Source: a bacterium
Lineage (GTDB): Bacteria; Zhuqueibacterota; Zhuqueibacteria; Oceanimicrobiales; Oceanimicrobiaceae
DNA: 35,380 nt
Assembly (NCBI GenBank): GCA_046757025.1
Contig: JBHHXN010000041.1
Location: 1-35,380 of the forward strand
Reading direction: 5' to 3'
Position 1 is the stretch's first letter. Each line of letters begins with the position of its first letter. The translations under genes and the position numbers were made by a program. Below are positions 9,315-25,615 of the stretch, in pieces. Below the pieces are notes generated by a model. That model worked only from the letters and a program-made list of their open reading frames with translations, did no database searches and had not been told where the DNA came from.

Positions 9315-9616
9315 ATGAAAATGCTGCTCAAAGTCACCATGCCCCACGAATCGTTCAACACCCTGGTACGACAGGGCAAAGCCGGGCAAATCCTCGGAAG
9401 AATTATGGAAGAAATCACGCCCGAAGCGTGTTATTTTACTGAGACAGATGGCAAACGATCCTGTGTGTGATAAATTTGCAGAGCCCTTCGGAAGTGCCAA
9501 AGTTCGCCGAGCCATTCTTTCTCAATTTTAATGCGGACTGCCGATTTCAGGTTCTCATGAGCGCAGAGGACTTACGAAACGCCGGTCTTGAAGAATTGGG
9601 TGAAAAGTGGGATTGA
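9315..9616 (+). pseudogene. Frameshifted ~100-aa conserved small protein (family often mis-annotated 'panthothenate synthetase')
   Basis: AAGGAG RBS; MKMLLKVTMPHESFN...YFTETDGKRSCV* (stop 9468-9470) continues in the -1 frame VINLQSPSEVPKFAEPFFLNFNADCRFQVLMSAEDLRNAGLEELGEKWD*. Confidence 0.75.
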
Positions 9617-9862
9617 ACGGTTCGGTATAATTGAATTTTTGCATCATGGGAGGAGGAACGTTCACACAAGCCTGATCTAAAACGGGAATCCCCCTGTGCG
9701 CCATTTGGCCAATCATGGAAAATGAAGTCGTGAAATACCTCGAAGCGGGCGTGTCAACGACTTTTTCATGAGCAGAGAAAAAAGTGTTTAAAACAAGTTA
9801 GCGACCTTGTTTAATTGCCAGTCGCCAATTATGAACGAATGTCAAGCGGAAAGGAGTAAAAA

Positions 9863-10492
9863 ATGTCCGATATGAATGGCGAAGAAAATCGCATCCGGGT
9901 GGTGGGATTGAACGGTAGTCTGCGGGAAGGCAGCTATACTCGTCTCACATTGGAAATCGCGCTCCAGGGCGCCAGCGAAGTCGGCGTCCACACACAATTG
10001 CTCGATTTGAAAGAGTACGATTTGAATTTTTGCGATGGCCGAGACGACCAGAGTACCTATCCACCCGATGTGAAAAAGCTGCGAGAAACGGTTGCCCGGG
10101 CACAGGGTCTAATCCTCGGTACACCCGAGTATCATGGCAGTTTCAGCGGTGTGTTGAAAAACGCGCTGGACCTGATGGGTTTTGAAGAGTTTGAGGGCAA
10201 AATGATCGGCCTGGTAGGGGTATCTGGTGGCGCGCTTGGAGCAGCCAACGCCTTGAATGGTTTGCGGTCCATCGGGCGAGCGCTGCATGCCTGGCTGATT
10301 CCGCAGCAAGCTTCCATTCCCGAAGCCTGGAAAGCCTTCGATGAATCCGGCAACTTGAAAGACAGCCACTTGATAGAACGAGTTAAGGAAGTTGGCCGCC
10401 AGGTGGCGCGATTTGCTTATCTGCACTCTTCCGAAAAAGCGCAAGAGTTTCTAAAAGCCTGGGAAGGCGCGCCACTGAATCCGGGTGGGTAA
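9863..10492 (+). CDS. NADPH-dependent FMN reductase (flavodoxin-like)
   Basis: GSLREGSY, GTPEYHGSFSGVLKNALD, VSGGALGA motifs; AAGGAG RBS. Confidence 0.92.
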   Translation: MSDMNGEENRIRVVGLNGSLREGSYTRLTLEIALQGASEVGVHTQLLDLKEYDLNFCDGRDDQSTYPPDVKKLRETVARAQGLILGTPEYHGSFSGVLKNALDLMGFEEFEGKMIGLVGVSGGALGAANALNGLRSIGRALHAWLIPQQASIPEAWKAFDESGNLKDSHLIERVKEVGRQVARFAYLHSSEKAQEFLKAWEGAPLNPGG

Positions 10493-10513
10493 TTCTGCAT
10501 CACAATTATCAAT

Positions 10514-10643
10514 TTGAATGACCAGTTGAAATAATTACGTTCGACTTCGCTCAGGTTGAAGCGTATCTCTTTATGGTGAGCGGAGGCGAACCATGTTAAC
10601 TCTTTAATTAGCAATTAAACCAGATTTTCGACTGGTCATTCAT
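10514..10643. mobile_element. 130-bp MITE-like element with nested REP hairpin and 9-bp target duplication
   Basis: Terminal IR TGAATGACCAGTTGAAA (10515-10531)/TTTCGACTGGTCATTCA (10626-10642), 16/17 match; flanking direct repeat ATTATCAAT at 10505-10513 and 10644-10652; inner IR GTTCGACTTCGCTCA/TGAGCGGAGGCGAAC. Confidence 0.7.
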
Positions 10644-10781
10644 ATTATCAATCGCCATGCAATTCTTCTAAGTAAAAGCATTCCAGAAATTCAGCCGTGT
10701 CCCATCTTCGAAATAACTGAGAGATTGAAGTTCGAACAGTAATCTTACTAAGTATTAGTTGGAAAATACTTGAGTAGAATT

Positions 10782-11768
10782 ATGAGTAAGACTCAATTCA
10801 TTGGGAGTGATCCCAAGATAAAAGATATATTACAGTTGGTTCAACACGTAGCTGATACCGATGCCACCGTTTTAATCACCGGAGAAAGCGGGACGGGTAA
10901 AGAACTGATTGCCCGCATCCTTCATGAGGATAGTTCGAGAGCCACAAATCCATTTATTGCAGTGAACTGCGGTGCATTAACAGAAACACTACAGGAATCT
11001 GAATTATTTGGCCATGTGAGAGGCGCGTTTACCGGTGCTTCTTCGAAAAAAATCGGCAAGTTTGAGGCAGCACATCGGGGGACTATATTTCTGGATGAAA
11101 TCAGTGAAATGAGCAAAGTTCTGCAAGTGAAATTGCTCAGGATCCTGCAATCCGGGGAGTATGCGCCAGTCGGAATGGCATATAATTGTTATTCGGATGT
11201 ACGCATTGTTGCGGCGACCAATCAAACGCTACAACCTCTGGTCGAAGCTGGTGAATTTCGACAGGACCTGTATTATCGGTTAAACGTCATTTGTCTGGAC
11301 CTGCCTCCGTTGCGAGAGCGCAAACAAGATATTCCATTGATGTTAGACCATTTTCTGAAAATCTTCAAAAACGTTTATGATAAACCTGAGCTTCAGATAT
11401 GTCCTGAAATTGTGGATGTATTGATGCAGTACGATTATCCAGGTAATGTTCGGGAATTGGAAAATATTATACGCAGGTCGATCATTTTGTGTTATGAGGA
11501 CCGGATTTCGTGCCAATATTTGCCTTCATACATTTTTGAAGAAAGGATTCATACACTGGAAGAGCACCCTAAAGACTTTCATCAGGCAAAAGCACAGGTG
11601 GTGGAAGAATTTGAACGAGATTATTTAACCTCAAAACTCAAGGATTGTGGCGGTATTATCAGTCGGGCAGCCGAGAGCGCAGGCTTGAGTGAACGCAACT
11701 TCCATGAAAAGATGAAGAAATACGGCATTCGAGGAAAGGCCTTTCGAGCAGAAGTGAACGCCGGTTGA
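10782..11768 (+). CDS. Sigma54-dependent enhancer-binding protein without N-terminal sensory/receiver domain
   Basis: Walker A GESGTGKE, ESELFGHVRGAFTGA, FLDEI, RQDLYYRLNV, YPGNVRELEN, C-terminal Fis-type HTH; start is ATG 10782 or TTG 10770. Confidence 0.93.
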   Translation: MSKTQFIGSDPKIKDILQLVQHVADTDATVLITGESGTGKELIARILHEDSSRATNPFIAVNCGALTETLQESELFGHVRGAFTGASSKKIGKFEAAHRGTIFLDEISEMSKVLQVKLLRILQSGEYAPVGMAYNCYSDVRIVAATNQTLQPLVEAGEFRQDLYYRLNVICLDLPPLRERKQDIPLMLDHFLKIFKNVYDKPELQICPEIVDVLMQYDYPGNVRELENIIRRSIILCYEDRISCQYLPSYIFEERIHTLEEHPKDFHQAKAQVVEEFERDYLTSKLKDCGGIISRAAESAGLSERNFHEKMKKYGIRGKAFRAEVNAG

Positions 11769-11872
11769 ATTGAACCCTCAAATAATAGTCATCTACAATG
11801 TTGCTGAAGAAAAGATCATAGTTTAGTGATACCTCCATCTGCTTGAGAGAAGTGCTGTATCCTGGCCAATTA

Positions 11873-11887
11873 TGGCTGCTATTTTGC
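11873..11887 (+). promoter_or_regulatory. Possible second, weaker sigma54 -24/-12 site
   Basis: TGGCTG-CTATT-TTGC with correct GG-N10-GC spacing. Confidence 0.35.
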
Positions 11888-11951
11888 TAACTCTCACAAT
11901 TTTAATCTATTAGAAGATCCTTCCAAAACATTTTCCACGATTCTTTTTTAA

Positions 11952-11966
11952 TGGCACCAATGTTGC
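11952..11966 (+). promoter_or_regulatory. Sigma54 (-24/-12) promoter
   Basis: TGGCAC-CAATG-TTGC, an exact match to consensus TGGCAC-N5-TTGC, between the activator gene and the downstream cluster. Confidence 0.85.
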
Positions 11967-12059
11967 GATTTCTCGAACGAATTTAGCCAAATTTACTCCA
12001 ATCATGTTTGCTTTTTACGCACTTAAAATTTAGTTGGATTTTTGTTTATAGGAGGATAT

Positions 12060-12500
12060 ATGGTGCAGAGAAACAGCGATCAGGTAATTCACTTTTGTCT
12101 CGCTGGAGCAAAAGTAAGTAACGATTGGAACTTGATCTGGCAACTTAAAATGGGACACGTTGTGACAATTGTTGAGAGTGAACACATTTTCAATGGCAAT
12201 TCCATTTTAGCTTCAGCAGATGTTCTTATTTTAGATTGCAATGAAAAACAAGAGTCGTATTCGCGATTTTTACAGAATTTACGAAAAATGAAAAGCGATT
12301 TTCCTGGACTGTGCATCGTGCTGGTAAATGGCGGGATCGACCAGAAGCAAATTGCTTTGGCGTTCAAAGAAGGAGTGCACGATTATTTCTCTGACCCTTA
12401 TGACGCAATACTGCTGATGGAACGCATCCAATACTTAATCCGAAACAAAAAAAACAATCAGATGGGTTGGGTTGATTCACATCCAGAGTCTATAAACTAA
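12060..12500 (+). CDS. Stand-alone degenerate receiver (REC-like) domain protein
   Basis: ADVLILD, CIVLVNG, ALAFKEGVHDYFSDPYD; conserved Lys of KP replaced by D; GGAGG RBS before ATG 12060. Confidence 0.7.
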   Translation: MVQRNSDQVIHFCLAGAKVSNDWNLIWQLKMGHVVTIVESEHIFNGNSILASADVLILDCNEKQESYSRFLQNLRKMKSDFPGLCIVLVNGGIDQKQIALAFKEGVHDYFSDPYDAILLMERIQYLIRNKKNNQMGWVDSHPESIN

Positions 12501-12770
12501 AAAATCTATTACAGTGATTTTGATCTGAGAATGATAAAATAGCATGACCAAAATCGATTAACAATCATCTTGAAAGATAATTTGGATTGGAACACAAAAA
12601 GCCGCCGTGAGATCGACATGCGACATATCCATTTAATATTCTGGCCGACGTGGTATCATGGACGTAGCATTTACAGAGTAACTATTTGTGTTTGCGGTTG
12701 GACTAAATGGCTCAGGATTGATTTTGTTAAACAGATTACCCAAAATGAAATTTAAAATTAAGGAGGCAGT

Positions 12771-15140
12771 TTGATGAAAACAATAAAAGAGCACCTGGAC
12801 AGGGCAAGTACTCATCAGGAAAACGAGTCGCCATTTCTTACAAGTGAAGAATTCGTGCCTGTTCAAGAAGAAGGTAATGGCTCTGTGACCATAGCATCCA
12901 ATATCAGAACTCCATTCGCGTCAATTTATGAGTGGCCTGGTAATGAAAATATGATGAGCGAGGAAGACCTGGAGGTATCCAGATTCGTAACCTCCTTATA
13001 TGATGAGGAATTTGACTCCGCTGTGTATCAGATAATGGAAGAAGCCTCACAACTCATTTCTGAATATGGGGAGAACCAGGAGGTCACAGCGGAACATTTG
13101 CTGAATGAGCATTTTGACTCACTGGCTACTGAGACAGAAGCAGCAATGGACTTCATAGCTGAGCACGCCGAACAGCTTGAGCAGGAAACGATTACGGAAT
13201 CAGAACTTGAAGCCATGGTAAACGACTGGCGGGTGGGTCGGACACCACTAACTCCAGGTCAACAGGAATATTTCTGGGGTTGGGCCAAGAAGGCAGTGAA
13301 ATGGGCCAAAAAGAAAGTCAAGGCGGTCGGGAAATGGGCTTTGAAGAAAGCTCTCCGCAAATTGAAAAGACTGGTAAGACCGGTTCTGAAACAGGTCTTG
13401 AAAAAAGCCATCAATTGGCTGCCATCAGCGTTACGTCCTATAGCTCGGCGTCTCGCCAAAAAGATTTTGAAGAAAGTCTCGGAGGCCGAGTTCGAGGATC
13501 CTGAGTACGAAAATCTCTCGGAAGTGGGTGCCATTCAGCATGAGCTGGATTTGCAATTAGCCCATCTGTTGTATTCGGAAGACGAAGAAGAGCAGGACGC
13601 AGCGGTTTCTGAGTTTATGCTTGAGGCCAATCAAGGTCCCGAGGATGCCGTCGTAAGGCTGCAGTCTGCCCGCGAAAGGTTTATCCAGGAAATCAGTGAG
13701 TTGGAAGATGAAGCAGACGTTGAGCCAGCGGTCGAACGATTTATTCCAGCTCTTCTGCCAGCTCTCAAATTAGGGCTTAAACTCATCGGTCGCCGCAAAG
13801 TTGTCAATTTCATCGCCAAGTATGTCGCCAAATTTATCAAGCGATTTGTGGGTAGAAAGTATGCCAAACGATTGTCTCGCGCAATCGTGGATGCCGGTTT
13901 GCGTTTGATTCATCTTGAAACGAACGAAGCAGACGAGCTCGAAGCCGCTGCCAGCGCAGTTGCAGGGGTGGTTGAAGACACGGTTCGAGAAGCTGCCGGC
14001 TTACCAGAACATATTCTCGAGGATGAGGCGCTGTTGGAAGGATTTCTGCTCGAAGCGTTTGAAAAAGCCGCCGCAGCAAACCTGCCGCAAGTGCTTCCTG
14101 AAAGTGTTTACGAGGATAGACCCGAACTGCGTGAGACTTCGCACCGCAAAGGCGCCTGGGTGATGCTGCCCAAAGGCAAACGAAAGCGTTTTAAAAAATA
14201 CACAAAGGTTATCGACGTCGTGATTACGCCGCATGCAGCCAAAATGATTAAGACGCATGGTAAACGTTCGCTCTCGACCTATTTTCAAGAAAAATTGAAA
14301 TTGCCAGCAGGTAAAATAGTAAAAGCGCGGCTCCATCTTTTTGAAGCCATGGTAGGCACGCGCTTAAGCGACATCAGTCGAAACGACCCAAGCCTTTCAT
14401 CTCATCTGCCAGTCGGCCGCGAATACGAGCACTTGCACCCCTTGACTCCCGAAGCAGCTGCCATGCTTTTAAATGAACCCGGCCTCGGAAGAGAGTACCA
14501 GGAAGCGTATCATTCCGACCGGACGCCAGGCAATGATGGCGGCAGGCGCGTCTATTTTATTGAAACAGAAGACGTACCTTACCTCGCGGGTAAAAAACAA
14601 CTTCCTCGCCTGTCTGAAGCCAGGCTCACGTTTGATTTTCCGGCAAACGAGGTCAAGATCTTCGCTTTTTTAAATGAAGGACGGGCGCAGGAAATCGCAC
14701 GAAAAATTCGACGTCAGGAACCTCCTGGGCAAATTTTAAACACGGTGTCTTCTGTCATGCGCAGTTTAATCGATGAAGCATTGAGCTGTAAAGTTCACCG
14801 CCATACAAGGGTGTTGCATGCGTCGCTGGCACCTGAAGCTATGATCGGAAATGGTTTGGGCCGGCTGCCTGCAAATATGCGTACGAAACTCCCTGTAACA
14901 ATTACAGAATGGGTGGGGCGAGGTCTGAAAAACTTTTTTTCCGAAAACGCTCAAGACTTCGTTTCGGCCACGGAAGACGAAGCAGATGGAGTAACGATGT
15001 TGATGACGATATCCGATCCTCCTGGTCTTGTAAATCTTCGCAAGATGATTGCTGGTGCCTCAACCCAATTTAGCCGCAACGGTATTCATGGGCAGGTTCA
15101 AGTGAACGTAAAGGTAATAGCCGGTTTTTACTATGAATGA
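12771..15140 (+). CDS. Hypothetical 789-aa protein: SPF/acidic leader, alternating acidic tracts and cationic amphipathic segments, C-terminal globular region
   Basis: Long ORF with AAGGAGG RBS (TTG 12771 or ATG 12774); charge-segregated composition is visible in the translation. Confidence 0.85.
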   Translation: MMKTIKEHLDRASTHQENESPFLTSEEFVPVQEEGNGSVTIASNIRTPFASIYEWPGNENMMSEEDLEVSRFVTSLYDEEFDSAVYQIMEEASQLISEYGENQEVTAEHLLNEHFDSLATETEAAMDFIAEHAEQLEQETITESELEAMVNDWRVGRTPLTPGQQEYFWGWAKKAVKWAKKKVKAVGKWALKKALRKLKRLVRPVLKQVLKKAINWLPSALRPIARRLAKKILKKVSEAEFEDPEYENLSEVGAIQHELDLQLAHLLYSEDEEEQDAAVSEFMLEANQGPEDAVVRLQSARERFIQEISELEDEADVEPAVERFIPALLPALKLGLKLIGRRKVVNFIAKYVAKFIKRFVGRKYAKRLSRAIVDAGLRLIHLETNEADELEAAASAVAGVVEDTVREAAGLPEHILEDEALLEGFLLEAFEKAAAANLPQVLPESVYEDRPELRETSHRKGAWVMLPKGKRKRFKKYTKVIDVVITPHAAKMIKTHGKRSLSTYFQEKLKLPAGKIVKARLHLFEAMVGTRLSDISRNDPSLSSHLPVGREYEHLHPLTPEAAAMLLNEPGLGREYQEAYHSDRTPGNDGGRRVYFIETEDVPYLAGKKQLPRLSEARLTFDFPANEVKIFAFLNEGRAQEIARKIRRQEPPGQILNTVSSVMRSLIDEALSCKVHRHTRVLHASLAPEAMIGNGLGRLPANMRTKLPVTITEWVGRGLKNFFSENAQDFVSATEDEADGVTMLMTISDPPGLVNLRKMIAGASTQFSRNGIHGQVQVNVKVIAGFYYE

Positions 15141-16386
15141 GTACGCTCAAATTATTAAGAAGCAATTGACCCGTCAGGTGCAGCATTGGGCATTTGCTGC
15201 GTCGAGGTTGCAGAACCTCGAAGATTACACTTCGCCCGACGCCTGGCAAGAGCTTGAGCGCTATCTTGGCGTGGCCATTCGGAGTGAGTTGTCGCGTCAT
15301 ATTGACCGTCTTGCGCGGCAAGGACAAAAGCTTTTCTTGAATCTTCGAAGTATCCAATCGTTGCCAGCGCTTGAGGACTTCGGCAGGCAGTTATTGAATT
15401 TCCGAACCAGCTATCTTAGAACGGAAACTGCTGTGGATTTTTACGCAGATGCCATCAATACCAGAACGAACAAGGAGATCGGCGCATTGCTGCGAGCGTG
15501 TGATTTTATCGCCAGAAAAAGTATGACCGATCTCCTGGATAAACTCCACAAGCCAACACCGCCGGTTCTCTGCTATCTCGATGACGGAGTGGGCGCTTCG
15601 ATTCTGAAAGCGGGGCTGCGATTCCCTGGCGGTCCCATTGAAAACCCGGCCGCAACCATTAAAGTTGTTCATCACAATCTTTATCGCCCGACATCGCTCA
15701 TCCACGAGGCGGGTCACCAGGTTGCTCACATACTCGGGTGGAATCGTGAACTGGCTGCAAGTTTAGAACAAGCCCTTGGCAAATATGACAGTGAAGTAGC
15801 GGAAACCTGGGGAAGTTGGGCGTCTGAGATTGCGGCAGATACCTTTGCTTTTGTTCATACGGGTTACGGTTCGGTTGCGGCGCTACATGACGTTGTGGAT
15901 GGTGGTGCGAGCAAAGTCTTTCGATTTTTGCCCGGAGATCCACATCCAATCGCTTACATAAGAGTCTTGTTAGGAACGAGTATGTGTACAGCGCTCTGGG
16001 GCAAAGGGCCATGGGATGAGCTGGCGCTTGCCTGGCAACACCGATACCCACTTAATCAAAAACAGTTGCACGTTTTCGAGTTGCTTAATAAATCGTTGCC
16101 GCTGCTTCCAAAAGCAGTGGAAACGTGTCTGATGACGCCAATGCGATCATTTGGTGGACAAAATTTGATTCAGCATATAAATCCCGAGCGAGTTAAGCCG
16201 GAAAGTCTGGCTGAGTTGGAACGCAGCGCCGGCAAAGCGCTTTTTCATTCGGAGCACTGGGTGCAGACTGAAGCGCTACGATTGTTAGCACTTACTGCTT
16301 TGAGATGCGCTACATTACCCGACGAAGCCTTATCAACATACCGCCAACAGAGGGCCTGGATGCTCAAGTTAGGCGGCATCATTTAA
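15133..16386 (+). CDS. Putative zinc metallopeptidase (HExxH, gluzincin/M48-like motif order)
   Basis: SLIHEAGHQVAH, downstream WASEIAADTFA and GDPHP; ATGAATGA 8-nt overlap with the upstream gene. Confidence 0.7.
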   Translation: MNEYAQIIKKQLTRQVQHWAFAASRLQNLEDYTSPDAWQELERYLGVAIRSELSRHIDRLARQGQKLFLNLRSIQSLPALEDFGRQLLNFRTSYLRTETAVDFYADAINTRTNKEIGALLRACDFIARKSMTDLLDKLHKPTPPVLCYLDDGVGASILKAGLRFPGGPIENPAATIKVVHHNLYRPTSLIHEAGHQVAHILGWNRELAASLEQALGKYDSEVAETWGSWASEIAADTFAFVHTGYGSVAALHDVVDGGASKVFRFLPGDPHPIAYIRVLLGTSMCTALWGKGPWDELALAWQHRYPLNQKQLHVFELLNKSLPLLPKAVETCLMTPMRSFGGQNLIQHINPERVKPESLAELERSAGKALFHSEHWVQTEALRLLALTALRCATLPDEALSTYRQQRAWMLKLGGII

Positions 16387-16427
16387 TTAAACGAAGGATT
16401 TTTTTATCTCACGAAAGGAGAGCGAAA

Positions 16428-16631
16428 ATGGCTAAAGATGAAACCAAAGTCAAGACTGTACCCACGGAAAACGTTATTCACACCAGCGCACGGGAGGATC
16501 CGCCAGACCCGAAAGCACAGGCCATTGCTGAGTTTATAAACATAAAAGCCGCGTTGAGTGGCGCCGATCCGGTCTGGCCAATTCCGGAATTAGATGATAA
16601 ATTGCGGCCAGGATTTAGCGGCCAGAGTTAA
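16428..16631 (+). CDS. Small hypothetical protein, 67 aa (MAKDETKVK...)
   Basis: GAAAGGAG RBS at 16413-16420 before ATG 16428; fills the gap in the operon. Confidence 0.65.
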   Translation: MAKDETKVKTVPTENVIHTSAREDPPDPKAQAIAEFINIKAALSGADPVWPIPELDDKLRPGFSGQS

Positions 16632-16668
16632 TTCAAAAGTTTCTGATAATGGAAAGGAGAATGTAATC

Positions 16669-17850
16669 ATGTTTAGAAGAATAGCACGAGGAATTGCGGG
16701 CGGTGCAAACACCTTATTCAAACTGCACCCACTCGAACTGAGTGCCTTACTGGAAGCAGCATGGGAATTCAGGGTTCATCAATCACCACTTCAGGCTGGA
16801 CACCCGAATCGTCGCAGCGACACACCTGAACTGCCGAGGTATATCCTCAACCTCTTTGATTTTTTTTCTGGCGGGAATACAACAGGTAATTCACTGAACG
16901 CCGTTGTGCAGAGAATGTTTGGCGAGGTCAGGTGGCACCACCTGATCTACGCTTACATGATCGAGAATACCCGCGTGTATGAGATTTTTGAAAAAGTTTT
17001 GTTTGAATACCTGCACGGCGAACGTCTCGGCCCGCCACTTCCGGATGCTCAGCACTGGCTTCGAAACACGGAAGAGTTGTTTTACAGAGATCCGGCACCG
17101 TTTTCTATCTACGGCGTGGTGAGCGATGTTCGTCCGGATAAGCGCGCGTCCCGGCGTAACGCTTACTACCGAATGTTTGGAATGGAGTTGAATCATGGCG
17201 CAGGCAAAGAAAAGACTTACAATTATCAAAAACCCGAGGTTGCTAACCGCGAATTTGTAGCGACATTTGAGGCTTTTCTACGTGAGGTTTGGATTGGCAT
17301 TTCCAATGTTGGCAATGCAAGCGGAAGCAATCCCACTGATAATGCTGCCATCGCAAACTTGGCGCGTCAGCTCAGCGATATGCTGAGAACCCGCCGGCAA
17401 AACGGCAACCTGTCCCGGCAGGAGTTTTGGTACGTCGCGATGATGTCCTGGTTCCATCTGACCATAGAACCCACAAATCCACCGCTGCCAATTATCGCCT
17501 CTTTGCGCGCTGAAGCACCGAGAGAAGATCAAGTCTTGTTCAAAGTGGCCGAGCGTGTAGGACAGCCGGTCTACAGCCGGGCCTATGATCTGTTTCAACT
17601 TGCCGAGCCCATGTCAAGAATTCTAACTCAGATCGAAATGGAAACTTATAATAATCCAGCAGCTGTGCCTGCACTTTATACTGAAGCTACTAATGGCCCC
17701 GAAGCGGACATGCGAACCATCATCACACACTGGTCGCTGGCAACCGGCAAAGACATGAAAGTTAGAAAAGGCTCGTCGATTTCGCAAATCAAGACCAGTG
17801 GCAATGGGCAAGCCGCAAAGCCAGAGAAGATGGTACTCGAAGCGGTTTAA
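16669..17850 (+). CDS. Hypothetical 393-aa cytoplasmic protein, no assignable family
   Basis: GAAAGGAG RBS before ATG 16669; globular composition with motif-like blocks WHHLIYAYMIENTR, RRNAYYRMFG, SWFHLT. Confidence 0.8.
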   Translation: MFRRIARGIAGGANTLFKLHPLELSALLEAAWEFRVHQSPLQAGHPNRRSDTPELPRYILNLFDFFSGGNTTGNSLNAVVQRMFGEVRWHHLIYAYMIENTRVYEIFEKVLFEYLHGERLGPPLPDAQHWLRNTEELFYRDPAPFSIYGVVSDVRPDKRASRRNAYYRMFGMELNHGAGKEKTYNYQKPEVANREFVATFEAFLREVWIGISNVGNASGSNPTDNAAIANLARQLSDMLRTRRQNGNLSRQEFWYVAMMSWFHLTIEPTNPPLPIIASLRAEAPREDQVLFKVAERVGQPVYSRAYDLFQLAEPMSRILTQIEMETYNNPAAVPALYTEATNGPEADMRTIITHWSLATGKDMKVRKGSSISQIKTSGNGQAAKPEKMVLEAV

Positions 17851-17968
17851 TCGTTGAACACGCAGTAAAAAGTATCCAGACAGATTCAATAGTTGACAAG
17901 ATCCACTCATTTTCTTGTTAGTCACAATATCTTGTAAAAAATACAAATTCATATTGGAAAGGTGAAAA

Positions 17969-20461
17969 ATGTCCTCCAGAAAACATTTAACGTTTCAATC
18001 CAAAAAGCCAATTGTGACAGATATTTCTCCATTTATGACTGAGCTGCTGATTGACGAGGAAGATCAAGAAAATTCTGGCGGTCGAATTGGAGCGTTTAAT
18101 CAGAATCAAATAGAACGATCTATTCTTCCTGAACAGGCCTTCAAAGAGGAAGCGAGTACTGGCGCCGAATCTGACGAGTTTGACATTTCTGATGCGGAAT
18201 GGGATGACGAAGATATCATTGCTGATGAAATTATGGAAACAGAATATGCATCTGAGGATGACGACGATGACGAAATGGTTTCAGAAGGAAAGTGTTGTGA
18301 ACAATGCAGGGCTCGACAAAAAGAGGCAGAATATGAATATTTTTATGAAGATTTAGAAGATGAAGATTTGGAATCAGAGTACGACGATGAACATGAATTT
18401 TTTTCAGAAACTGACGTAGACCACCTGGATGAAGAACAGGATTGGGATGATGAGGATGAATATGAAGAAAACGAAAGTCTGGAGTATGATGAGTGGGAAT
18501 CCGAATTTGAAGAAGACGAACTTGAGGATTTGATTGAGGATCCGGAAGAATACTACGAAGAACTGGATGACGAGTTTTGGGAGGCTGAAATCCCTGCTGA
18601 AGCATTAGAGCAAGAAATTCATAACGACACTTTCACAAGAGTTCGTAATCAACGTAACGGCTTTCGAAGAGATTGGGAGATTGAAGCTGCAATGCAACTG
18701 CACTGTGACGATCAGACGCCACTCGATTATAAAGCGCTCTATGAACTGTTATCTGGCACTGGTCGCAATCGTCGCGAAGATTGCAATGATAATGATTGGG
18801 ATGCATTCAGGGACATGCGTCGATGTGCCAGTTGTGCTGCATTTACCAGCGGCTTCGGCTGGCGTCGCATGACCTGGGACAAAGACTCACATGCAATCCG
18901 TGAACAGTTCCCATACGTGTGGCTAACTGTCGAACCGCGTCGATACCGACGAAGAGAACAACGTCTCAATAGAAGGGTTGATTTCGCCACCGACATGATG
19001 GATGATTTCTACTTTGATGATGACCATTTCACTCTGTTCTGCAATAAATACCTGTTGCGAGGTCGCAAGCGCTGGGACAGTTGGCGTTGTAACGAGGCTC
19101 CTGATATCAGGCGCCTTCTGGTGGCCACCAAAAGGATAGAAGGAGTTGATCCTGATGGAATCAAAAAAGCGTATAAAGAAGACATACGATTAAACCGCGT
19201 CAGGCGAAGGCATCTCAGGGACCTGGTGCGAGATATCCAAAAGGGTCTGGTAGATTGGTCTCGCAGCAGGCGAGCGAGGCAGCGTAACTTTAGGGCGATC
19301 TTTCCAATCAGGCGCATGTACGAAACCTTGCAAAGGAGGGGCGTGTTCTCTGGATTTACCAAAGGGAACAATACACATGTACTGGACCTTAAACCCAAAG
19401 TTTTTATTCGCTCTTTGCGTTCTCGCTACCACTTGCGGGAGACTTCATTACGGCGTTTAGAAGAAATTCGTCTGTTGGGGATACGACGACTCCGAACCTT
19501 ACGAAATAACGCCAGAATGCGTTTGAGGGATAATACATTGAATCCAGCTTTACAAAACGTGGCTCAGAATTTTGTAAGAAAAGCAACGGGCTGTCTCAAT
19601 TACAGCCTGGTGACCTCCCGGGCACAGTCCCAATTGCAGGCGCTACGCTCTGGCAGGCAAATAACACGTAACCGGGTTAGGGCATTGCGCCCGCGAAGAC
19701 GTCCGCGTATCCGCCGGCATCGAGAGCTTCAAGAACGCAGGGTTATCGCGGAAACACTCAACAAGCTCTATCACGAACTGGCGATGGAAGCAAATAACAG
19801 TGGACTGTTAAATTCAATCTCAGGAGTATCAACAAATGGAGGGCAGTTTTGGGTCAGGCAAATCGAGGCAGCAGGTAGCGCAGGTCTCGGACTTTGGTTT
19901 GACCAGGCACGGGAACACTATGTGCCCCGCTCTGGACGTATCGTGCGTGACGATTTCTTGATTGACACGCTGGATGCCAGCGGCATGTTCACGCCCGATG
20001 CCTGGGCCTGTATTTCAGAGGATCAGCAAACTCACCAGGCGCAGCCGGACATAAACAAGCTATTCTACGCTTCCCTGACCAATGAGGTCCAAATTGAGCA
20101 GGGGCGAGAACGAGCTTTTCTGAGAACGATCGATAATTTGAAAGACCAAATCGCTCGGACTTCAAACTCAGGCAGAAGACAAAGACTACAAACCCGGCTC
20201 ACTGGTGCAAACTTCGTATTTGGAGAGTACCGGAAAGCATTGATAATGATCGCGAAAATAAAAGAAAACCAGATATTAAACGGCATCGATCGCGAAGTGT
20301 CGGCTGCTCGCAGAGCAGGGGAATCGGCGCCACAATGTCAGAATTGGGCCTGGAAGCCAGCAAAGCAAGGCAAAGGTGAGAAAGCCATGACTCTGCTCAG
20401 GCAGAAATTCGGGATTCAGTGTAAGTCAGGTGCGGCAGCGACAACCTCCACTTTTGTTTAA
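17969..20461 (+). CDS. Hypothetical 830-aa protein: SPF motif, ~215-aa Asp/Glu-rich leader, extremely Arg-rich body
   Basis: AAAGGTG RBS; composition of the translation. Confidence 0.8.
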   Translation: MSSRKHLTFQSKKPIVTDISPFMTELLIDEEDQENSGGRIGAFNQNQIERSILPEQAFKEEASTGAESDEFDISDAEWDDEDIIADEIMETEYASEDDDDDEMVSEGKCCEQCRARQKEAEYEYFYEDLEDEDLESEYDDEHEFFSETDVDHLDEEQDWDDEDEYEENESLEYDEWESEFEEDELEDLIEDPEEYYEELDDEFWEAEIPAEALEQEIHNDTFTRVRNQRNGFRRDWEIEAAMQLHCDDQTPLDYKALYELLSGTGRNRREDCNDNDWDAFRDMRRCASCAAFTSGFGWRRMTWDKDSHAIREQFPYVWLTVEPRRYRRREQRLNRRVDFATDMMDDFYFDDDHFTLFCNKYLLRGRKRWDSWRCNEAPDIRRLLVATKRIEGVDPDGIKKAYKEDIRLNRVRRRHLRDLVRDIQKGLVDWSRSRRARQRNFRAIFPIRRMYETLQRRGVFSGFTKGNNTHVLDLKPKVFIRSLRSRYHLRETSLRRLEEIRLLGIRRLRTLRNNARMRLRDNTLNPALQNVAQNFVRKATGCLNYSLVTSRAQSQLQALRSGRQITRNRVRALRPRRRPRIRRHRELQERRVIAETLNKLYHELAMEANNSGLLNSISGVSTNGGQFWVRQIEAAGSAGLGLWFDQAREHYVPRSGRIVRDDFLIDTLDASGMFTPDAWACISEDQQTHQAQPDINKLFYASLTNEVQIEQGRERAFLRTIDNLKDQIARTSNSGRRQRLQTRLTGANFVFGEYRKALIMIAKIKENQILNGIDREVSAARRAGESAPQCQNWAWKPAKQGKGEKAMTLLRQKFGIQCKSGAAATTSTFV

Positions 20462-20484
20462 AACAAAATTCACAAGGCAATTAA

Positions 20485-21759
20485 ATGCTTTCTGATAAAG
20501 AAGATCTCGATCTGAGCATAAAATTTGTTACTCCATTTCTCAATGAATCAATTTTCGATGAAGAAGAATATGAAAATCAGGTAATGTACAAGTACGAGCC
20601 TGACAATCAATATGAAAGCCAATCCCGGTCTGTAATCGAGCCTGCGGAAGAAGAAACTAGTGAAGCGGAGGCTGAAGAATATTATGAATTCGAAGATGGG
20701 TTTGATAATGAGTTTGTAGATGAGCAATTCGAAGAATACAAAGATGAATTCGAGGAATTCAATGAGGATTTTGATTATGAGGTGGAACTCCAGAGAGAGG
20801 ATTGGGAACAGGAATGGGCTGATTTCCAATTAGAAGATTCAGATTCGCTCAAAGAAGTCAAATCTACGATGCAATCTATTCTAAAAGCTAAAACACCGTC
20901 AGAGAAACGGATAAATCAACTAAAACAATTATTCGAGGAAAAGGTGCCACTGTTTGATTCCCGGTTGATCCTGAGGAAACTGATTAATAATACCAATGAA
21001 GGCCGGCTTCTTAAGAAGTGTGTTCCTCAATATTCTCCACGCCGCAGACTGCTTCGCCTCCTGTACTGGAGAACAAAAGGCGCAGACATTACGAAACGAG
21101 GGGAGATTTTCAGCAGAAGGCTAAAGAAATTACGGGCGAAAGAATCAACAAAGTTAATATGGCCCACGAAAAAGAAATACTGGAAAGAGATGACCGCGTA
21201 TGAAAAAAAAGTCATACGATCATCACATGCCAGCGCAACTATTAGAGCCGAAGCCATGCTAATCGCAGCTAATATTTATGCGAAGCAACTAGATACGCCA
21301 GCCGCCGCCAGCGTTTACTATGAGAAAGCAGTCGGGCTCATACGAAACGGGCAAGCCTATTCCTCATTGAGCGCCTCTGACAGAGAGCTCTTTATAAGGG
21401 AAATCACCTCACGAATCCAGATGATAAAGAAACATTTGTTGCAACAATCAGAAAAACCGACTGCAAGCTCCCTTGCTGAATGCCGAAGTGGTGCTGCCAG
21501 CGATTATTTTATGTCAGGTTATATGGAAGATGCAGTAGCCGTATTTAAAAGCATCTTGAAAATTGACGGCCTAAAATTAGATAATTTCGAAAGGCTACAT
21601 GCGTTGGTTAAACTGGGCGATTTTTACAAAGAATCTGTTCCTGCAGCGGCTTTGTATTATTATGAAAAATATCTTGAGTCAGGCTTGCTCCATGGTGATT
21701 CGAAACAATCTTTAAAAAAGGCAATAACTCGACTGAACAAGCGTGTTGACAGTCCATAA
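20485..21759 (+). CDS. Hypothetical 424-aa protein: TPF motif, ~120-aa acidic leader, basic middle, TPR-like C-terminus
   Basis: AASVYYEKAV, AVAVFKSILKI, ALVKLGDFY...AALYYYEKYL TPR-like helices. Confidence 0.75.
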   Translation: MLSDKEDLDLSIKFVTPFLNESIFDEEEYENQVMYKYEPDNQYESQSRSVIEPAEEETSEAEAEEYYEFEDGFDNEFVDEQFEEYKDEFEEFNEDFDYEVELQREDWEQEWADFQLEDSDSLKEVKSTMQSILKAKTPSEKRINQLKQLFEEKVPLFDSRLILRKLINNTNEGRLLKKCVPQYSPRRRLLRLLYWRTKGADITKRGEIFSRRLKKLRAKESTKLIWPTKKKYWKEMTAYEKKVIRSSHASATIRAEAMLIAANIYAKQLDTPAAASVYYEKAVGLIRNGQAYSSLSASDRELFIREITSRIQMIKKHLLQQSEKPTASSLAECRSGAASDYFMSGYMEDAVAVFKSILKIDGLKLDNFERLHALVKLGDFYKESVPAAALYYYEKYLESGLLHGDSKQSLKKAITRLNKRVDSP

Positions 21760-21785
21760 AGAAGCAATCAAGGATTATTGAAATT

Positions 21786-22892
21786 ATGCAAAAAAGTGAA
21801 TTTAGTTCGAGGCAGAAGCTGTCTGGAAATCCCTTCCTGCATGCTTTTGAAGCAATTCAGAATGAATCCATCGAACAACTTAATGATGAATATTATAAAC
21901 TCGACGATGAGTTTGCTGATGAAGGGTCAACTGGGAGAAAGGGGATATATTCGGAATCCCCTTTCATTGCGATGGTTCAAGAAGGAGTAGAGCTTGAATC
22001 AGAAGTGTTTGGTGCCAACCAAATGATGTGGGTGCGCAATCCCCTGGCAGTTCCGAATCGCTGGATCTGCCGTCTGGACATAAGATACGAAATCACACCG
22101 TGGAGTGGGGGGCGAAGGCTGCGGGGCTCCGGAAGAGGAACCGGTACTCTAATCGGGAACCGTCACGTTTTGACCGCGGCACATAACATCCAGATGTACG
22201 ATCCAGTACGTAAAAACTATCTCAGAGCTACCAGGATCATGGTCACACCGGCCCATAATGGCAGCACTTCGCCGCCAATTATGGGAGTAGAAGCAGATCT
22301 ATCCAGGTCAAGAACACCGCGAGGTTGGCAAGTGGCTCGTAGAATCGCTGCAAACGGTGCAGCCAATATGGCTGGAGAAGTCGCGACCAACCGCCACGAC
22401 TACGCGTTACTCACTTTGAGAAGGTCCATAGGACAAACGCAAGTACGAGTGCTGGGCAGTCGACTGGGCTACTGGGGGAACAACGGATCGAACGGTATAG
22501 CCCACTTTCGACGCCAGAATCCGACCGTTTTAAAAGACAACAAAGTCTTTGTCGCAGGCTATGGTTATGATAACTGTGTGAGGACGGTCCGCCGAGTGAC
22601 TGCAACTCCAGGAATCCCCCTGGGCAGTCAGTTAATTGCGTCGGGTCGGCTACGACTTTTCCGAGTCAGAGGTAAAAACAGCATCTTTATTGGTAGAAGC
22701 ATGGCCCACGACGTAGATACTTGCGGCGGTCAAAGTGGTGCGTCAGTCTGGATTGAGCGGAATGGAGTGTTTGACTTGGTAGGAATTCATACGGGTGCAG
22801 TCAGTCTCTCCAATGGTGTGCGAGTAAACCACACCGTCCGTGTCACCCGCGAATTTATGAGGAACGTTCGATATTGGCAAAGGCACACTTAG
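21786..22892 (+). CDS. Trypsin-fold serine protease, V8/glutamyl endopeptidase-like, with acidic pro-leader
   Basis: GTGTLIG, VLTAAHN (His), HDYALL (Asp), DTCGGQSG (Ser), VGIHTG; predicted mature start ELESE|VFG. Confidence 0.88.
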   Translation: MQKSEFSSRQKLSGNPFLHAFEAIQNESIEQLNDEYYKLDDEFADEGSTGRKGIYSESPFIAMVQEGVELESEVFGANQMMWVRNPLAVPNRWICRLDIRYEITPWSGGRRLRGSGRGTGTLIGNRHVLTAAHNIQMYDPVRKNYLRATRIMVTPAHNGSTSPPIMGVEADLSRSRTPRGWQVARRIAANGAANMAGEVATNRHDYALLTLRRSIGQTQVRVLGSRLGYWGNNGSNGIAHFRRQNPTVLKDNKVFVAGYGYDNCVRTVRRVTATPGIPLGSQLIASGRLRLFRVRGKNSIFIGRSMAHDVDTCGGQSGASVWIERNGVFDLVGIHTGAVSLSNGVRVNHTVRVTREFMRNVRYWQRHT

Positions 22893-22958
22893 GCTCCCCT
22901 GCTCCCCTCAATCGACAATTTTGTTTTAGCAAGCTGTTTAATCAATAAGAGGTCACAA

Positions 22959-23366
22959 ATGAAAAACAAAAATCTATCGTCAAGAATATTGACAACATTA
23001 TGTGGTTTGCTGACCGCAGTCTTGTTGATGGGCTCGCTTTGTACCAAGCCCATCGATCTGGAGCCATTCAAAGAACTAGCCCGAAATGCCGATTGTGCAG
23101 AGATCAGCAATCGTCTGTTTCTGATCGATAAGAAAATGGTATTCTGGGAGCGCCTGGGCAATTGTCCCGATAATAGTTTTGCGCAAACGCTTTACGGCAA
23201 AACGCCGGACGACGTATTGTGTTCGCGCTACGATTCCATCGGCGGTCCTCTGCAATCCTGCAACGATCAATCATACCAGAATATGTTTCAAACCATGGTG
23301 GATAACCTTAATCAACCTGATTTAGGACTTGGGCCAGGCCATGATGTTGAACCGATCTCATTTTAA
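22959..23366 (+). CDS. Small exported Cys-containing protein/possible lipoprotein
   Basis: MKNKNL + hydrophobic stretch ending GSLC; four further Cys; GAGG RBS. Confidence 0.7.
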   Translation: MKNKNLSSRILTTLCGLLTAVLLMGSLCTKPIDLEPFKELARNADCAEISNRLFLIDKKMVFWERLGNCPDNSFAQTLYGKTPDDVLCSRYDSIGGPLQSCNDQSYQNMFQTMVDNLNQPDLGLGPGHDVEPISF

Positions 23367-23474: not shown

Positions 23475-24494
23475 CTATGATGATGAAACTGGAATTTCAC
23501 CTTCTGCTTCATCACTTGCAGGCTTAAGTCGCACGGGTGGCGGATCCGCGATAGCTGTCAACAACTTGAGCTCACCGGTACGCATGCGGATCCAACCAGC
23601 AATCAGCACAATTCCTAGAATCATCGCCAATAAACCGAGCAGCCCGGCTTCCGGGCCAAAAACGCCGCCAGTCCAGATTTCGGGACCTCCCTGTTCGATG
23701 GCGGTGACCGTTGTTGGAAAAACGTTGGTGCCGCTGACCGGAAAACCAAAGACGTTGCCCTGAAAGAAATTCCAGGTGATATGCAAACCGATGGGGATGG
23801 CGAGGCTGCCGGTCAAGACGTAAGCCAGGCCCAGCATAATGCCGGCCATGGCAATGTTGACCGAACTTATGAGCGTGGCATTGGGATTGTTGGCGTGGGC
23901 AATTCCAAATACAGCCGAAGTCAGGAACCAGGAAATGAGTACCGCCCAGCGTGCATTGATAAATCGAAATTTGAGGCCTTCGGCTACATTCAGCAGCAGG
24001 TAGCCGCGGAACGTCAACTCTTCTGCAAAACCCACGCCGATATAAAAAACAAAGGCGGTAAGCATGGCCAGCAGAAAAGACTGATCCGGGTTGGGCATCC
24101 GAAACGTCTCGGAAATGGTGACCCAGCCAGCCATTCGCTCCACACCAAAAATGAGGGTCATGAGCACGGCTCCCAGAGCCAGACCAAATCCGAAATCCAC
24201 CCACCAGTTTTTAGAGGATTGTATGCCGGTTTCCGCAAACTTGCGCCGATCCAGCCAGCGAGCGCCCATCCAGATGGCGAAGATAATAAAAATATTCGCT
24301 TGAAGTTGTCCCCAAAAAGCGGGGGCATCCATTTTTAGCAGTGAAAACGCCATTCCGTTGACAACCATTAGAAGGAACGCAAAAAGAGCCGTTCCCAATA
24401 ATCGCCACAAGAGGCGCAAACGCCGTTCATCGGCATGCCAGAAGATAGCGGCGGCATAGCGAACGATGGCTTTTTTTTCAGTGGTTTGATTCAC
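23475..24494 (-). CDS. CPBP (Abi/CAAX) intramembrane glutamic endopeptidase
   Basis: AEELTFRGY, FGIAHANN, IGLHITWN, FGPEAG; multiple TM segments. Confidence 0.9.
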   Translation of the reverse strand: MNQTTEKKAIVRYAAAIFWHADERRLRLLWRLLGTALFAFLLMVVNGMAFSLLKMDAPAFWGQLQANIFIIFAIWMGARWLDRRKFAETGIQSSKNWWVDFGFGLALGAVLMTLIFGVERMAGWVTISETFRMPNPDQSFLLAMLTAFVFYIGVGFAEELTFRGYLLLNVAEGLKFRFINARWAVLISWFLTSAVFGIAHANNPNATLISSVNIAMAGIMLGLAYVLTGSLAIPIGLHITWNFFQGNVFGFPVSGTNVFPTTVTAIEQGGPEIWTGGVFGPEAGLLGLLAMILGIVLIAGWIRMRTGELKLLTAIADPPPVRLKPASDEAEGEIPVSSS

Positions 24495-24738: not shown

Positions 24739-25602
24739 TTAGTTTGAACAATATTCCTGTTTTTTTGCGGCAATGTTCAGCAGCTCATGTACTTTTTCCA
24801 GCATAGCGATTTGCCGCTGGAGATGCCCGTGCTGTGTTTCCACGTTGATATAAGGTATGTTTCGTTCACCACAGTAAACCGAAAGCGAGCCGTCGTCGGT
24901 GACCTGGTCGTTGTTCTGCAACACGACATTTTGCCCCTGGTTTTTAAAATATTCAAAAAAGGATTTCTTCGTCACAAAAAAGAAATCATCCGGATCCCTT
25001 TCTGGATTGGCGAAAGTCTTTTCGGCGTCTCGTTCATACACTCCGCCGGCTTGATAACTTTTGATGGAATATCCGTTCTCGCCGTTGTTGTGAACAGTAA
25101 CCATGCATTGTAATTCGTTTGCAAATAAAATTTGAAACAGATTACTTACAAACCGGGCAATTTCAGTGTGAGCCTCTTTGGATAATTTGCTGTGTCTGGC
25201 AAGCGTGCTGTCGATGCCGATTTCCGTGAAAATGCGGTTTGGGTCAAAAACATATTTCTGACTATTCAAAGAAAAAGTAATCAGACGCTCTCCCTTCGAC
25301 TGCAACTCTATGAGTTTGCCGCCAAATTTTTTCACAACTGATTTGGCGGCTTCCACCGCGGTGTTTTCATCGTCGTGCATGTTGAAATAAACCCGGCTGC
25401 TGCTACGTTTCTCAAAAATATCCACGTAGATTGCGGTCTCTCCAAGCCGGATTGGGATTCTTTTGGATGAAACTACGGACGCTGTTTTTTCACTTCCTGC
25501 ATTTTTCTGACTATCCTCCGTTGCGCGTTCACAGTTGAATTGAATCAACCCAATAATGAGAACAAATAAAAACGCTGCTATTGGAAATTTCATGCAATTC
25601 AT
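24739..25602 (-). CDS. Exported protein with Zn-carboxypeptidase/deacylase-like motifs
   Basis: NMHDDENTA, FDPNRIF, VHNN, YINVE; start moved to ATG 25602 (or 25593) to avoid overlap with the upstream gene; signal-like N-terminus. Confidence 0.6.
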   Translation of the reverse strand: MNCMKFPIAAFLFVLIIGLIQFNCERATEDSQKNAGSEKTASVVSSKRIPIRLGETAIYVDIFEKRSSSRVYFNMHDDENTAVEAAKSVVKKFGGKLIELQSKGERLITFSLNSQKYVFDPNRIFTEIGIDSTLARHSKLSKEAHTEIARFVSNLFQILFANELQCMVTVHNNGENGYSIKSYQAGGVYERDAEKTFANPERDPDDFFFVTKKSFFEYFKNQGQNVVLQNNDQVTDDGSLSVYCGERNIPYINVETQHGHLQRQIAMLEKVHELLNIAAKKQEYCSN

Positions 25603-25615
25603 GAGAAAAAGCATT

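Follow-up and report, generated by a model that had tools for sequence, protein, structure and literature searches.

What does the gene cluster at positions 10,782–23,366 of contig JBHHXN010000041.1, from a bacterium of the phylum Zhuqueibacterota (assembly GCA_046757025.1), encode, and does it belong to any named secretion, modification or defense system? We analyzed the 35,380-nt stretch that carries it (positions 1–35,380 of the contig, hereafter the window). As judged from sequence, the cluster contains a real, conserved four-gene core, here called A to D, that is without description in the literature searched, accompanied by cargo genes whose products begin with the same short doubled motif, or tag, as protein A.

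A first-pass annotation of the window had reported a receiver-less σ54 activator, an exact −24/−12 box and nine co-directional genes, all of which are in place. The nine genes follow the promoter on the forward (+) strand and encode proteins of 146, 789, 417, 67, 393, 830, 424, 368 and 135 residues. Core gene A (12,774–15,140; 788–789 residues) was delineated from homologues, alignments and a structure model, and more likely starts at the ATG at 12,774, giving 788 residues. Alignment places its doubled SPF/TPF tag, with motifs 27 residues apart, at 12,828–12,917, and its first block of cationic amphipathic helices, with acidic helices on both sides, lies at 13,278–13,475. Gene B (15,133–16,386; 417 residues) overlaps the stop of A and encodes a predicted zinc metallopeptidase with an HEAGH motif (residues 191–195; 15,703–15,717). 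Gene C (16,428–16,631; 67 residues) encodes a small protein kept by position, and gene D (16,669–17,850; 393 residues) an all-helical soluble protein, as indicated by homologues and a structure model. Three cargo genes follow: one of 830 residues with an SPF tag, an acidic leader of ∼215 residues (to ∼18,620) and a basic payload (17,969–20,461); one of 424 residues with a TPF tag, an acidic leader of ∼120 residues and a basic helical payload (20,485–21,759); and one of 368 residues with an NPF/SPF tag, a leader ending in ELESE-VFG and a V8-type serine protease domain (21,786–22,892). The earlier description of four proteins (789, 830, 424 and 368 residues) with an early [S/T/N]PF motif, an acidic region and a basic remainder was borne out, as were the HExxH motif in the 417-residue protein, the V8-like protease (Trypsin, PF00089) and, by hydropathy, the lack of a Sec signal in the four motif-bearing proteins, whose N-terminal hydrophobic stretches score 0.37–1.27 compared with 2.32 for the 135-residue protein. 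It had missed that the SPF motif is doubled.

The first-pass annotation also held that the 789-, 417-, 67- and 393-residue genes form a core and that the downstream genes are interchangeable cargo with a common leader. Linkage of the core was kept in two locus sets, and neighborhood comparison agrees with the cargo proposal. A scan of GTDB genomes for D returned 174 relatives, the best 80 of which were kept as D-anchored loci; the B-anchored set comprised 80 of 365 metagenome loci, a few of which repeat GTDB loci or each other. Among D-anchored loci, B lies upstream in 74/80 and A in 72/80, always in the order A-B-D. Counting only loci with enough flank (it is too short for B in five and for A in another two), the figures are 74/75 and 72/73, with L054 as the single true exception, and in the B-anchored set they are 71/71 for A and 50/51 for D. 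Patristic distances of A, B and D across 64 loci correlate at 0.79, 0.53 and 0.64, against a permutation maximum of 0.28. Split or frameshifted cargo and core genes were seen in several assemblies (L123:11042-13811, L016, L032, L041 and L065).

Relatives of D occur in Cyanobacteria, Bacteroidota, Actinomycetota, Acidobacteriota, several proteobacterial and myxobacterial groups, Paenibacillus, Methanosarcina and Methanothrix. In the tree of B, phyla are intermingled, and the two archaeal sequences branch apart from each other among bacterial ones. Within lineages the genes are sparse: D was present in 3/167 genomes of the window's phylum, 3/59 Methanosarcina genomes and 4/201 genomes of a Bacteroidota order sample (two of the four having served as seeds). 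At the sensitivities used, D was not found in plasmid, phage or IMG/VR collections.

Annotation resources offered little for the core, in line with the earlier statement that the cluster matches no named system. Proteins A, B, C and D had no match in Pfam, PADLOC (2023 library, E 0.1) or PHROGs, apart from one weak PHROG match on B (E 0.021), and A, B and D had none in NCBIfam (C was left out of that scan). Those homologues of A and D that bear names, among the matches listed, are all “hypothetical”. Literature searches, which covered mostly open-access main texts, returned no description; such genes could still appear in supplementary files of PMC3482391, PMC12352652 and PMC7159879.

The tag was characterized mainly from the first gene after D. 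A strict motif-plus-acid rule was passed by this gene in 45 of the 73 D-anchored loci with a next gene, and five more carry the motif with almost no acid tract. From a tag set of 51 cargos (46 rule-passing genes and five with the motif but little acid), the consensus is E-x-[ED]-S-P-F-L, doubled, with a spacing of 22–33 residues in 34/41. Protein A bears the same doubled motif; across 148 homologues of A the first PF and second P are nearly invariant and the second F is invariant. When a motif-plus-acid rule was applied to the window's genome, 4 of 8,901 six-frame open reading frames (ORFs) passed, three of them in the cluster and one an unrelated secreted protein, and the 830-residue gene failed solely through a Met after PF.

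A tag profile built from 33 leaders matched exactly the three D-positive genomes among the 167 of the window's phylum (E 9e-15, 1e-12 and 9e-9), two of which lay outside the training set, with one weak match elsewhere (E 0.007). Matches in 45/80 D-anchored loci all fall on the operon strand. In the B-anchored set the profile matched the gene after D in 36/42 loci, against three opposite-strand matches; the six misses comprise four genes with the motif by eye, one transposase (L133) and one leaderless NlpC/P60 gene. Genome-wide, it was positive in 23/50 D-positive genomes, nearly always at the core locus, and no tagged cargo had a signal-like hydrophobic stretch (0/87, by a hydropathy rule rather than a trained predictor). 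We conclude that the tag is very probably a sorting signal read by the core.

The acidity of the leader, which the earlier note had stressed, proved secondary: the doubled SPF is the conserved part, and five cargos nearly lack an acid tract. Nor are cationic payloads the rule, since only 20/42 full-length cargos have net positive payloads, with a median of 0 per 100 residues. The three window cargos, with leader charges of −79, −41 and −10 and remainders of +51, +29 and +29 (+8 to +10 per 100 residues), are extreme among the 42. The idea that acid leaders neutralize the payload is supported as charge tuning, though not as a statement that payloads are generally cationic. Leader and payload charge are anticorrelated (ρ = −0.67, n = 42; −0.55 with GC content held, −0.65 without five near-duplicates; kin are treated as independent in this correlation), and 41/42 precursors are net neutral or acidic.

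Cargo payloads were scanned in 47 genes, namely 39 of the 46 rule-passing genes (four short cut genes and three near-duplicates were dropped) and eight other first genes after D. Peptidoglycan-cutting or -binding domains were found in 22/47, including Amidase_2, Amidase_6, DUF2272, SLT, VanY, M15, M23, M74, CHAP, lysozyme types and PG_binding_1; passages of PMC10318531 group DUF2272 with NlpC/P60, CHAP and amidase-like proteins. The others include trypsin (7), PhoD (3), transglutaminase-like (2), PLD (1) and amine oxidase (1) domains, and 12 had no Pfam match. Thirty of the 42 metagenome next genes gave 11 wall-related, nine trypsin, one DUF7800 and one transposase match, and eight without any. 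Most loci have a single cargo gene, of 300 to 1,700 residues, while some of the same operons hold additional tagged cargos and leaderless hydrolase genes. A domain swap between loci was seen only for L206 versus L012; apparent cargo swapping among the close Methanosarcina-like loci L123, L125 and L126 was rejected, as they carry the same cargo, one copy being frameshifted. At L013:11080-14484, one ORF combines an amine oxidase with a downstream SPF tag inside the protein, near residue 595, which suggests a fused or polyprotein cargo.

The V8-like protease, earlier counted among the cluster's own processing proteases, is a cargo domain and not a core processing enzyme: trypsin-like genes occur in 15/80 loci. 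Motif inspection of the 368-residue protein gives a His133, Asp205 and Ser317 triad with Thr312 and His335 at S1, which we take to form a Glu-specific V8-type pocket, and V8 protease is its sole PDB match (E 1.2e-4). A Glu closes its leader immediately ahead of the protease domain, an arrangement shared with L014, L038, L042 and L072, and the trypsin domain follows Glu in 3/7 other listed junctions, plus L014. The 830- and 424-residue payloads had no match in Pfam, NCBIfam, PADLOC or PHROGs; the latter has a weak TPR-like C-terminus. Three homologues of the 830-residue payload were found, two of which (P0392 and P0394) start with hydrophobic, Cys-ending segments of lipoprotein type, and their homology to the 830-residue protein begins at the end of the acidic leader. 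In this one payload family, a signal peptide is swapped for the tag. Immunity-like genes are scarce by a crude test: 3/64 cargos have a small signal-bearing ORF nearby, and 39/64 have no co-oriented ORF within 120 nt. This scarcity suits archaeal and diderm producers.

In B, residues H191, E192, H195, E232 and D236 are invariant in 50/50 homologues, giving HExxH with downstream Glu and Asp, and an N-terminal helical hairpin precedes them. The nearest annotated clusters, M48/U49 (feature score 0.77, TM 0.32–0.34), fall below the tool's bars, and none of the 50 sequences matched DUF4157, the peptidase family of Photorhabdus virulence cassettes (PVC) (Pfam, E 0.1). A divergent homologue (33% identity over 245 residues, same motifs) was found in two genomes of the window's phylum that lack D, directly behind a 217–220-residue acidic-then-basic protein and a σ54 activator, with more acidic-leader genes downstream in one genome (L208:7091-19874, G207:C86; L209:463-3945, G206:C485). 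Such a small protein was found in 5/72 genomes, each time with a B-family gene within ∼4 kb (5/5) and twice without D; L212, L213 and L216 are further sister loci. Because the B family travels with acidic-then-cationic proteins even without D, B is the likely leader peptidase. Neither the small sister protein nor the sister peptidase has a Pfam family. Kinship of the small protein with A was rejected, as block-shuffled copies score equally high. It is tandem or repeated in G009 and G021, and L208 also holds further acidic-leader genes, an Extensin-like_C protein and a poly-γ-glutamate hydrolase.

Protein A has 359 homologues (E 0.001) and a compact model (predicted template modeling score, pTM, 0.84) with a disordered tag, alternating acidic and basic helices, and an α/β C-terminal half. 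The hydrophobic moments of its basic amphipathic helices are 2.1–2.4, and A is likely an obligatory co-substrate and membrane-active carrier. A fold search gave no Foldseek match at E 0.001 and a best VIA Z of 7.0 (root-mean-square deviation, rmsd, 4.5; 165 aligned), but it scarcely covered the C-terminal half. Protein D, the most conserved core protein (1846 homologues at E 0.001; 672 representatives), is modeled as soluble and all-helical (predicted local distance difference test score, pLDDT, 88.8; pTM 0.87) and has many invariant polar residues; it is likely a tag receptor or scaffold. Its model had no Foldseek match at E 0.001, a best VIA Z of 5.3 (rmsd 3.8; 88 aligned) and, in the ESM Atlas, only weak matches to unnamed clusters at 0.88–0.90. 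At that Foldseek threshold neither model matched a capsid fold of an encapsulin or viral-type shell, and the empty lists for A and D do not show a new fold. Sequence searches of solved structures returned nothing for D or the 830-residue payload and only weak coiled-coil or TPR-like matches for A, B and the 424-residue payload. Complex prediction of B, D and C with the A tag scored 0.48 versus 0.58 for the control, which is no answer, and was used neither for nor against binding.

An ORF of at least 35 residues lies between B and D in 63/71 loci, and the element it shares with C is one short amphipathic helix; six intergenic frames gave a match to C below E 0.01. Often, C carries an additional β-rich domain at its C terminus (L029:9406-9960, L033, L036, L039, L043, L060, L206:5618-6130), presumably Ig-, fibronectin- or IPT-like by eye, which could be a targeting or adhesion part. 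Transmembrane-like stretches were found in 6/148 A, 0/50 B and 0/120 D sequences, and the core holds no channel, ATPase or membrane protein.

The archaeal loci bear on where the cargo acts. Two Methanosarcina genomes, on near-closed contigs, carry the intact locus with a cargo combining SLT and peptidoglycan-binding domains. Between them, the ratio of nonsynonymous to synonymous substitution rates is 0.19 for A, 0.12 for B, 0.29 for C, 0.11 for D and 0.19 for the cargo, with 0.12 in the SLT region as in a flanking gene (0.12); the lytic-transglycosylase cargo is thus under purifying selection in Methanosarcina. In a third species the locus occupies the same site and its cargo differs in part, and Methanothrix cargos include VanY, M15 and amine oxidase domains. 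Methanosarcina and Methanothrix lack peptidoglycan, and therefore the substrate of the archaeal cargo is likely foreign. A known signal peptide is present in only 32% of archaeal wall hydrolases, according to passages of PMC12352652.

Taken over all loci, we propose that A and the cargo would be made as net-acidic, soluble, inactive precursors whose tag is bound by D with C. Zinc peptidase B would then cut at or near the end of the acidic region, uncaging the cationic amphipathic helices of A, which would permeabilize the producer membrane or form a carrier. A producer subpopulation would release the cargo, probably by lysis, and the enzymes would attack neighboring bacteria; Glu-specific V8-type domains, where present, would self-activate and may split multi-domain cargos. 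We regard this reading as a whole, in which the tag directs processing by B and antibacterial enzymes are released by way of A, as having about an even chance of being right. Its parts differ: that the cargo acts outside the producer, on bacteria, is probable, and exit through A is somewhat less likely than not.

Several observations weigh against this proposal. The lack of a channel, ATPase or membrane protein leaves the exit route unseen, and no cleavage motif common to all leader ends was found. In at least eleven loci, no tagged cargo lies near the core (L037, L043, L047, L052, L053, L066, L068, L069, L070, L074 and L079). A homologue of D stands alone at L054:10001-11083, with neither A nor B in the locus and no match to B in the genome, and the 50 D-positive genomes contain a sole orphan tagged cargo (L122:1276-2841, G020:C252, from a Methanothrix genome). 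The window's own cargos have no recognizable wall-cutting domain, the scarcity of immunity genes is puzzling for producers whose peptidoglycan is exposed (Streptomyces, Nonomuraea and Amycolatopsis), and the independence assumed for kin affects the charge correlation.

Some of these points favor a programmed self-killing or anti-phage suicide system, in which triggered B cuts A, the helices open the cell's own membrane and tagged hydrolases are optional lysis helpers. The cargo-less loci show that A-B-C-D can stand alone; one of them (L043) has a caspase-domain gene before A and a BTAD regulator after D, and another (L066) has a TIR-WD40 gene upstream. The endolysin-like domains lack signal peptides, immunity genes are missing, and bacterial gasdermins, which are protease-activated pore formers, provide an analogy. 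However, SLT, VanY and M15 cargos persist in archaea that have no peptidoglycan, with purifying selection seen in Methanosarcina; lysis is not a task for PhoD, amine oxidase or transglutaminase cargos; and the core has neither PADLOC matches nor recurring defense neighbors among the loci listed. We consider self-killing unlikely. The mixture of wall hydrolases, proteases, PhoD phosphatases, PLD and amine oxidases would also suit an extracellular or surface scaffold for feeding on dead biomass, with the doubled tag docking enzymes on A or D much as duplicated dockerin segments dock cellulosome enzymes; the loose spacing of the duplicated motif and the few immunity genes fit as well. Against such a scaffold stand the usual single cargo gene per locus, the sparse and patchy spread (3/167, 4/201, 3/59), the ever-present dedicated peptidase, and the absence of signal peptides on scaffold or enzymes, which would still leave export unexplained; we judge it quite unlikely. 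Modification of the kind seen in ribosomally synthesized and post-translationally modified peptides, with D binding the SPF tag and modifying the Glu-rich tract or payload before B removes the leader, would fit the many invariant polar residues of D, and PFxxxF/Y leader motifs resemble graspetide leaders. It is nevertheless very improbable, given that the substrates are large folded enzymes, the loci hold no known maturase family or transporter, and A would stay unexplained. Acidic low-complexity stretches are common (136/8,901 ORFs of the window's genome), yet a chance cluster or compositional artefact is refuted by the gene order kept in two independently anchored sets, the specificity of the tag and purifying selection, and its probability is negligible.

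Another candidate role for the core is that of a loading or maturation accessory to an extracellular contractile injection system (eCIS) whose genes lie elsewhere in the genome. The window's genome does contain an eCIS locus, on a different contig (G000:C32:1-15921); it comprises genes for a sheath, a tube, a Pvc16_N fusion, an ATPase-like protein, a spike and a baseplate, and it lies directly behind a further receiver-less σ54 activator. Shared σ54 control of the two loci was dropped as an explanation, as the box there has two mismatches and the activators are 38% identical. The marker Pvc16_N, searched in the genomes of 50 of the 80 D-anchored loci (chosen for longer contigs; many assemblies are incomplete), was present in 28/50 D-positive genomes compared with 20/164 and 17/197 D-negative ones. 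Passages of PMC12352652 report that archaeal wall hydrolases lacking a signal show some enrichment in genomes that encode a sheath, which also favors an eCIS link. The marker was nonetheless absent from 22/50 D-positive genomes (about 44%); among 26 marker-negative or untested genomes, 24 had no sheath match and two had weak ones (positive control 5/5), and the two near-closed Methanosarcina genomes had neither sheath nor tube matches. Cargos of 500–1,700 residues are large, and genome size and lifestyle confound the enrichment. Thus, eCIS are enriched but not required; a shared lifestyle, perhaps with shared lysis release, fits better than dependence, and an accessory role is improbable.

We then compared the system with published ones. 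It fails the tested defining features of every system compared. Polymorphic toxin systems combine a conserved N-terminal trafficking part with variable C-terminal enzymes (Zhang et al. 2012, PMC3482391) and share with our loci that architecture, releasing peptidases and a patchy horizontal spread. Here, however, there are no RHS or filamentous repeats, immunity genes are mostly absent, and the trafficking part consists of a short doubled motif with an acid tract; the “acidic” and “HExxH” passages of that paper describe no such core. Family scans of A to D and the absence of signal-like stretches in the cargos gave no link to Sec, to type V, VI or VII secretion systems, to PVC or to MuF. The ABP / S8-PTS toxins of gram-positives (PMC13556192, PMC13460014) resemble the scheme proposed here in that a cognate protease frees a caged cationic amphipathic helix, of the kind predicted in A, and in payloads that can be strongly basic. 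Those toxins are secreted and act in the cytoplasm; they rely on a serine protease of the S8 family, contain a BetaH domain and have an immunity protein in the cytoplasm. Our loci instead comprise four core genes, among them one for a zinc peptidase, lack signal peptides and carry cargo directed mostly at the wall; neither an S8 match in the window proteins nor signal-like stretches in the cargos were found. DUF4157-bearing eCIS likewise tie an HExxH peptidase to toxins, with effectors at the 3′ end, release after lysis and similar environmental hosts (Geller et al. 2021, PMC8213781), but the window's genes include no tube, sheath, baseplate or Pvc16 gene and B has no DUF4157 match.

Streptomyces umbrella toxin particles are also few-gene, multi-protein antibacterial complexes with a polymorphic part (Zhao et al. 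2024, PMC11062931). Our system differs in having no repeat-crown toxin or lectin spokes in a Pfam scan (which could miss degenerate repeats), in lacking signal peptides and in a range far beyond Actinobacteria. Broken-hairpin effectors act on wall or membrane without signal peptides, secretion genes or immunity genes, and a small fused trafficking element has been proposed for them (PMC12419801); that element is a C-terminal β-hairpin without a partner operon, in contrast to the N-terminal motif and four-gene core found here. Archaeal peptidoglycan hydrolases, modular enzymes used against bacteria, offer a further parallel (PMC12352652), but those tested are Tat-secreted and haloarchaeal, and “Methanosarcina” is absent from the main text.

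The σ54 elements are local features of the cluster. The activator (10,782–11,768, +) satisfies the criteria for σ54 enhancer-binding proteins (an AAA domain with GAFTGA and a Fis-type helix-turn-helix, HTH), with family library matches to Sigma54_activat, an AAA lid and HTH_8 but no receiver, and it is the only cluster gene with paralogues in the same genome. A motif scan places the exact TGGCAC-N5-TTGC box at 11,952–11,966 (+). The genome (5.96 Mb) has 27 exact copies, 22 of them outside long ORFs, compared with a chance expectation from base frequencies of ∼10 per genome and ∼2e-4 in the 290-bp gap behind the activator. The stand-alone 146-residue receiver-like protein (12,060–12,500, +; weak response-regulator matches, best E 2.9e-6) may form a split pair with the activator. 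As a trait of the system, σ54 control did not hold up: an activator lies near the core in 5/80 loci, a receiver of the 146-residue type in 2/80 (together with the activator), and in 5/95 A has a box with one mismatch or none no farther than 800 nt away, three of these from one organism. Actinobacterial loci carry BTAD regulators instead. The activator is a local regulator outside the conserved core. Scans for σ70 promoters and terminators came close to chance (25 versus 18.2 and 17 versus 13.5). L056 has an exact σ54 box upstream of A at position 363, and restriction-modification and integrase-like genes at 8931–14,918 suggest a mobile island there.

At the end of the window cluster, the 135-residue protein (22,959–23,366, +), with a hydrophobic N-terminal segment ending in Cys, is absent from related loci and probably lies outside the system. 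A CPBP/Rce1-like intramembrane protease gene (23,478–24,494, −) converges on the cluster end and was not seen as a conserved neighbor. Upstream, a PIN-domain gene (7604–7990) within a low-GC stretch (7001–8000, 34%) is probably a toxin–antitoxin remnant. The ORFs at 5165–6895, 8527–8763, 8796–9092 and 24,739–25,743 (576, 78, 98 and 334 residues) have no Pfam match, and the first follows an Omp85-family gene.

In its widest form, to which we give slightly less than even confidence, our proposal is a protein export and arming pathway common to bacteria and archaea. In it, the signal peptide would give way to a doubled SPF tag of ∼45 residues, an acid tract tuned to the payload's charge would hold the cargo inert, and a soluble four-protein machine without channel or ATPase would build a protease-triggered, membrane-active carrier from A. 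Methanogens would have adopted it twice against bacterial walls, and a D-less sister system would use the same peptidase family on small acidic-then-cationic proteins. The rival readings of protease-triggered self-lysis or an enzyme scaffold would be new systems too, and under any of them three large conserved protein families without a family model are open to structural study. The unannotated domains behind the tag (12/47 and 8/30 cargos without a Pfam match) are candidate antibacterial enzymes. If the proposed export reading is true, antibacterial enzymes of 300 to 1,700 residues would be delivered by a short portable tag without any named secretion machine, providing a candidate exit route for signal-less wall hydrolases of both archaea and bacteria.

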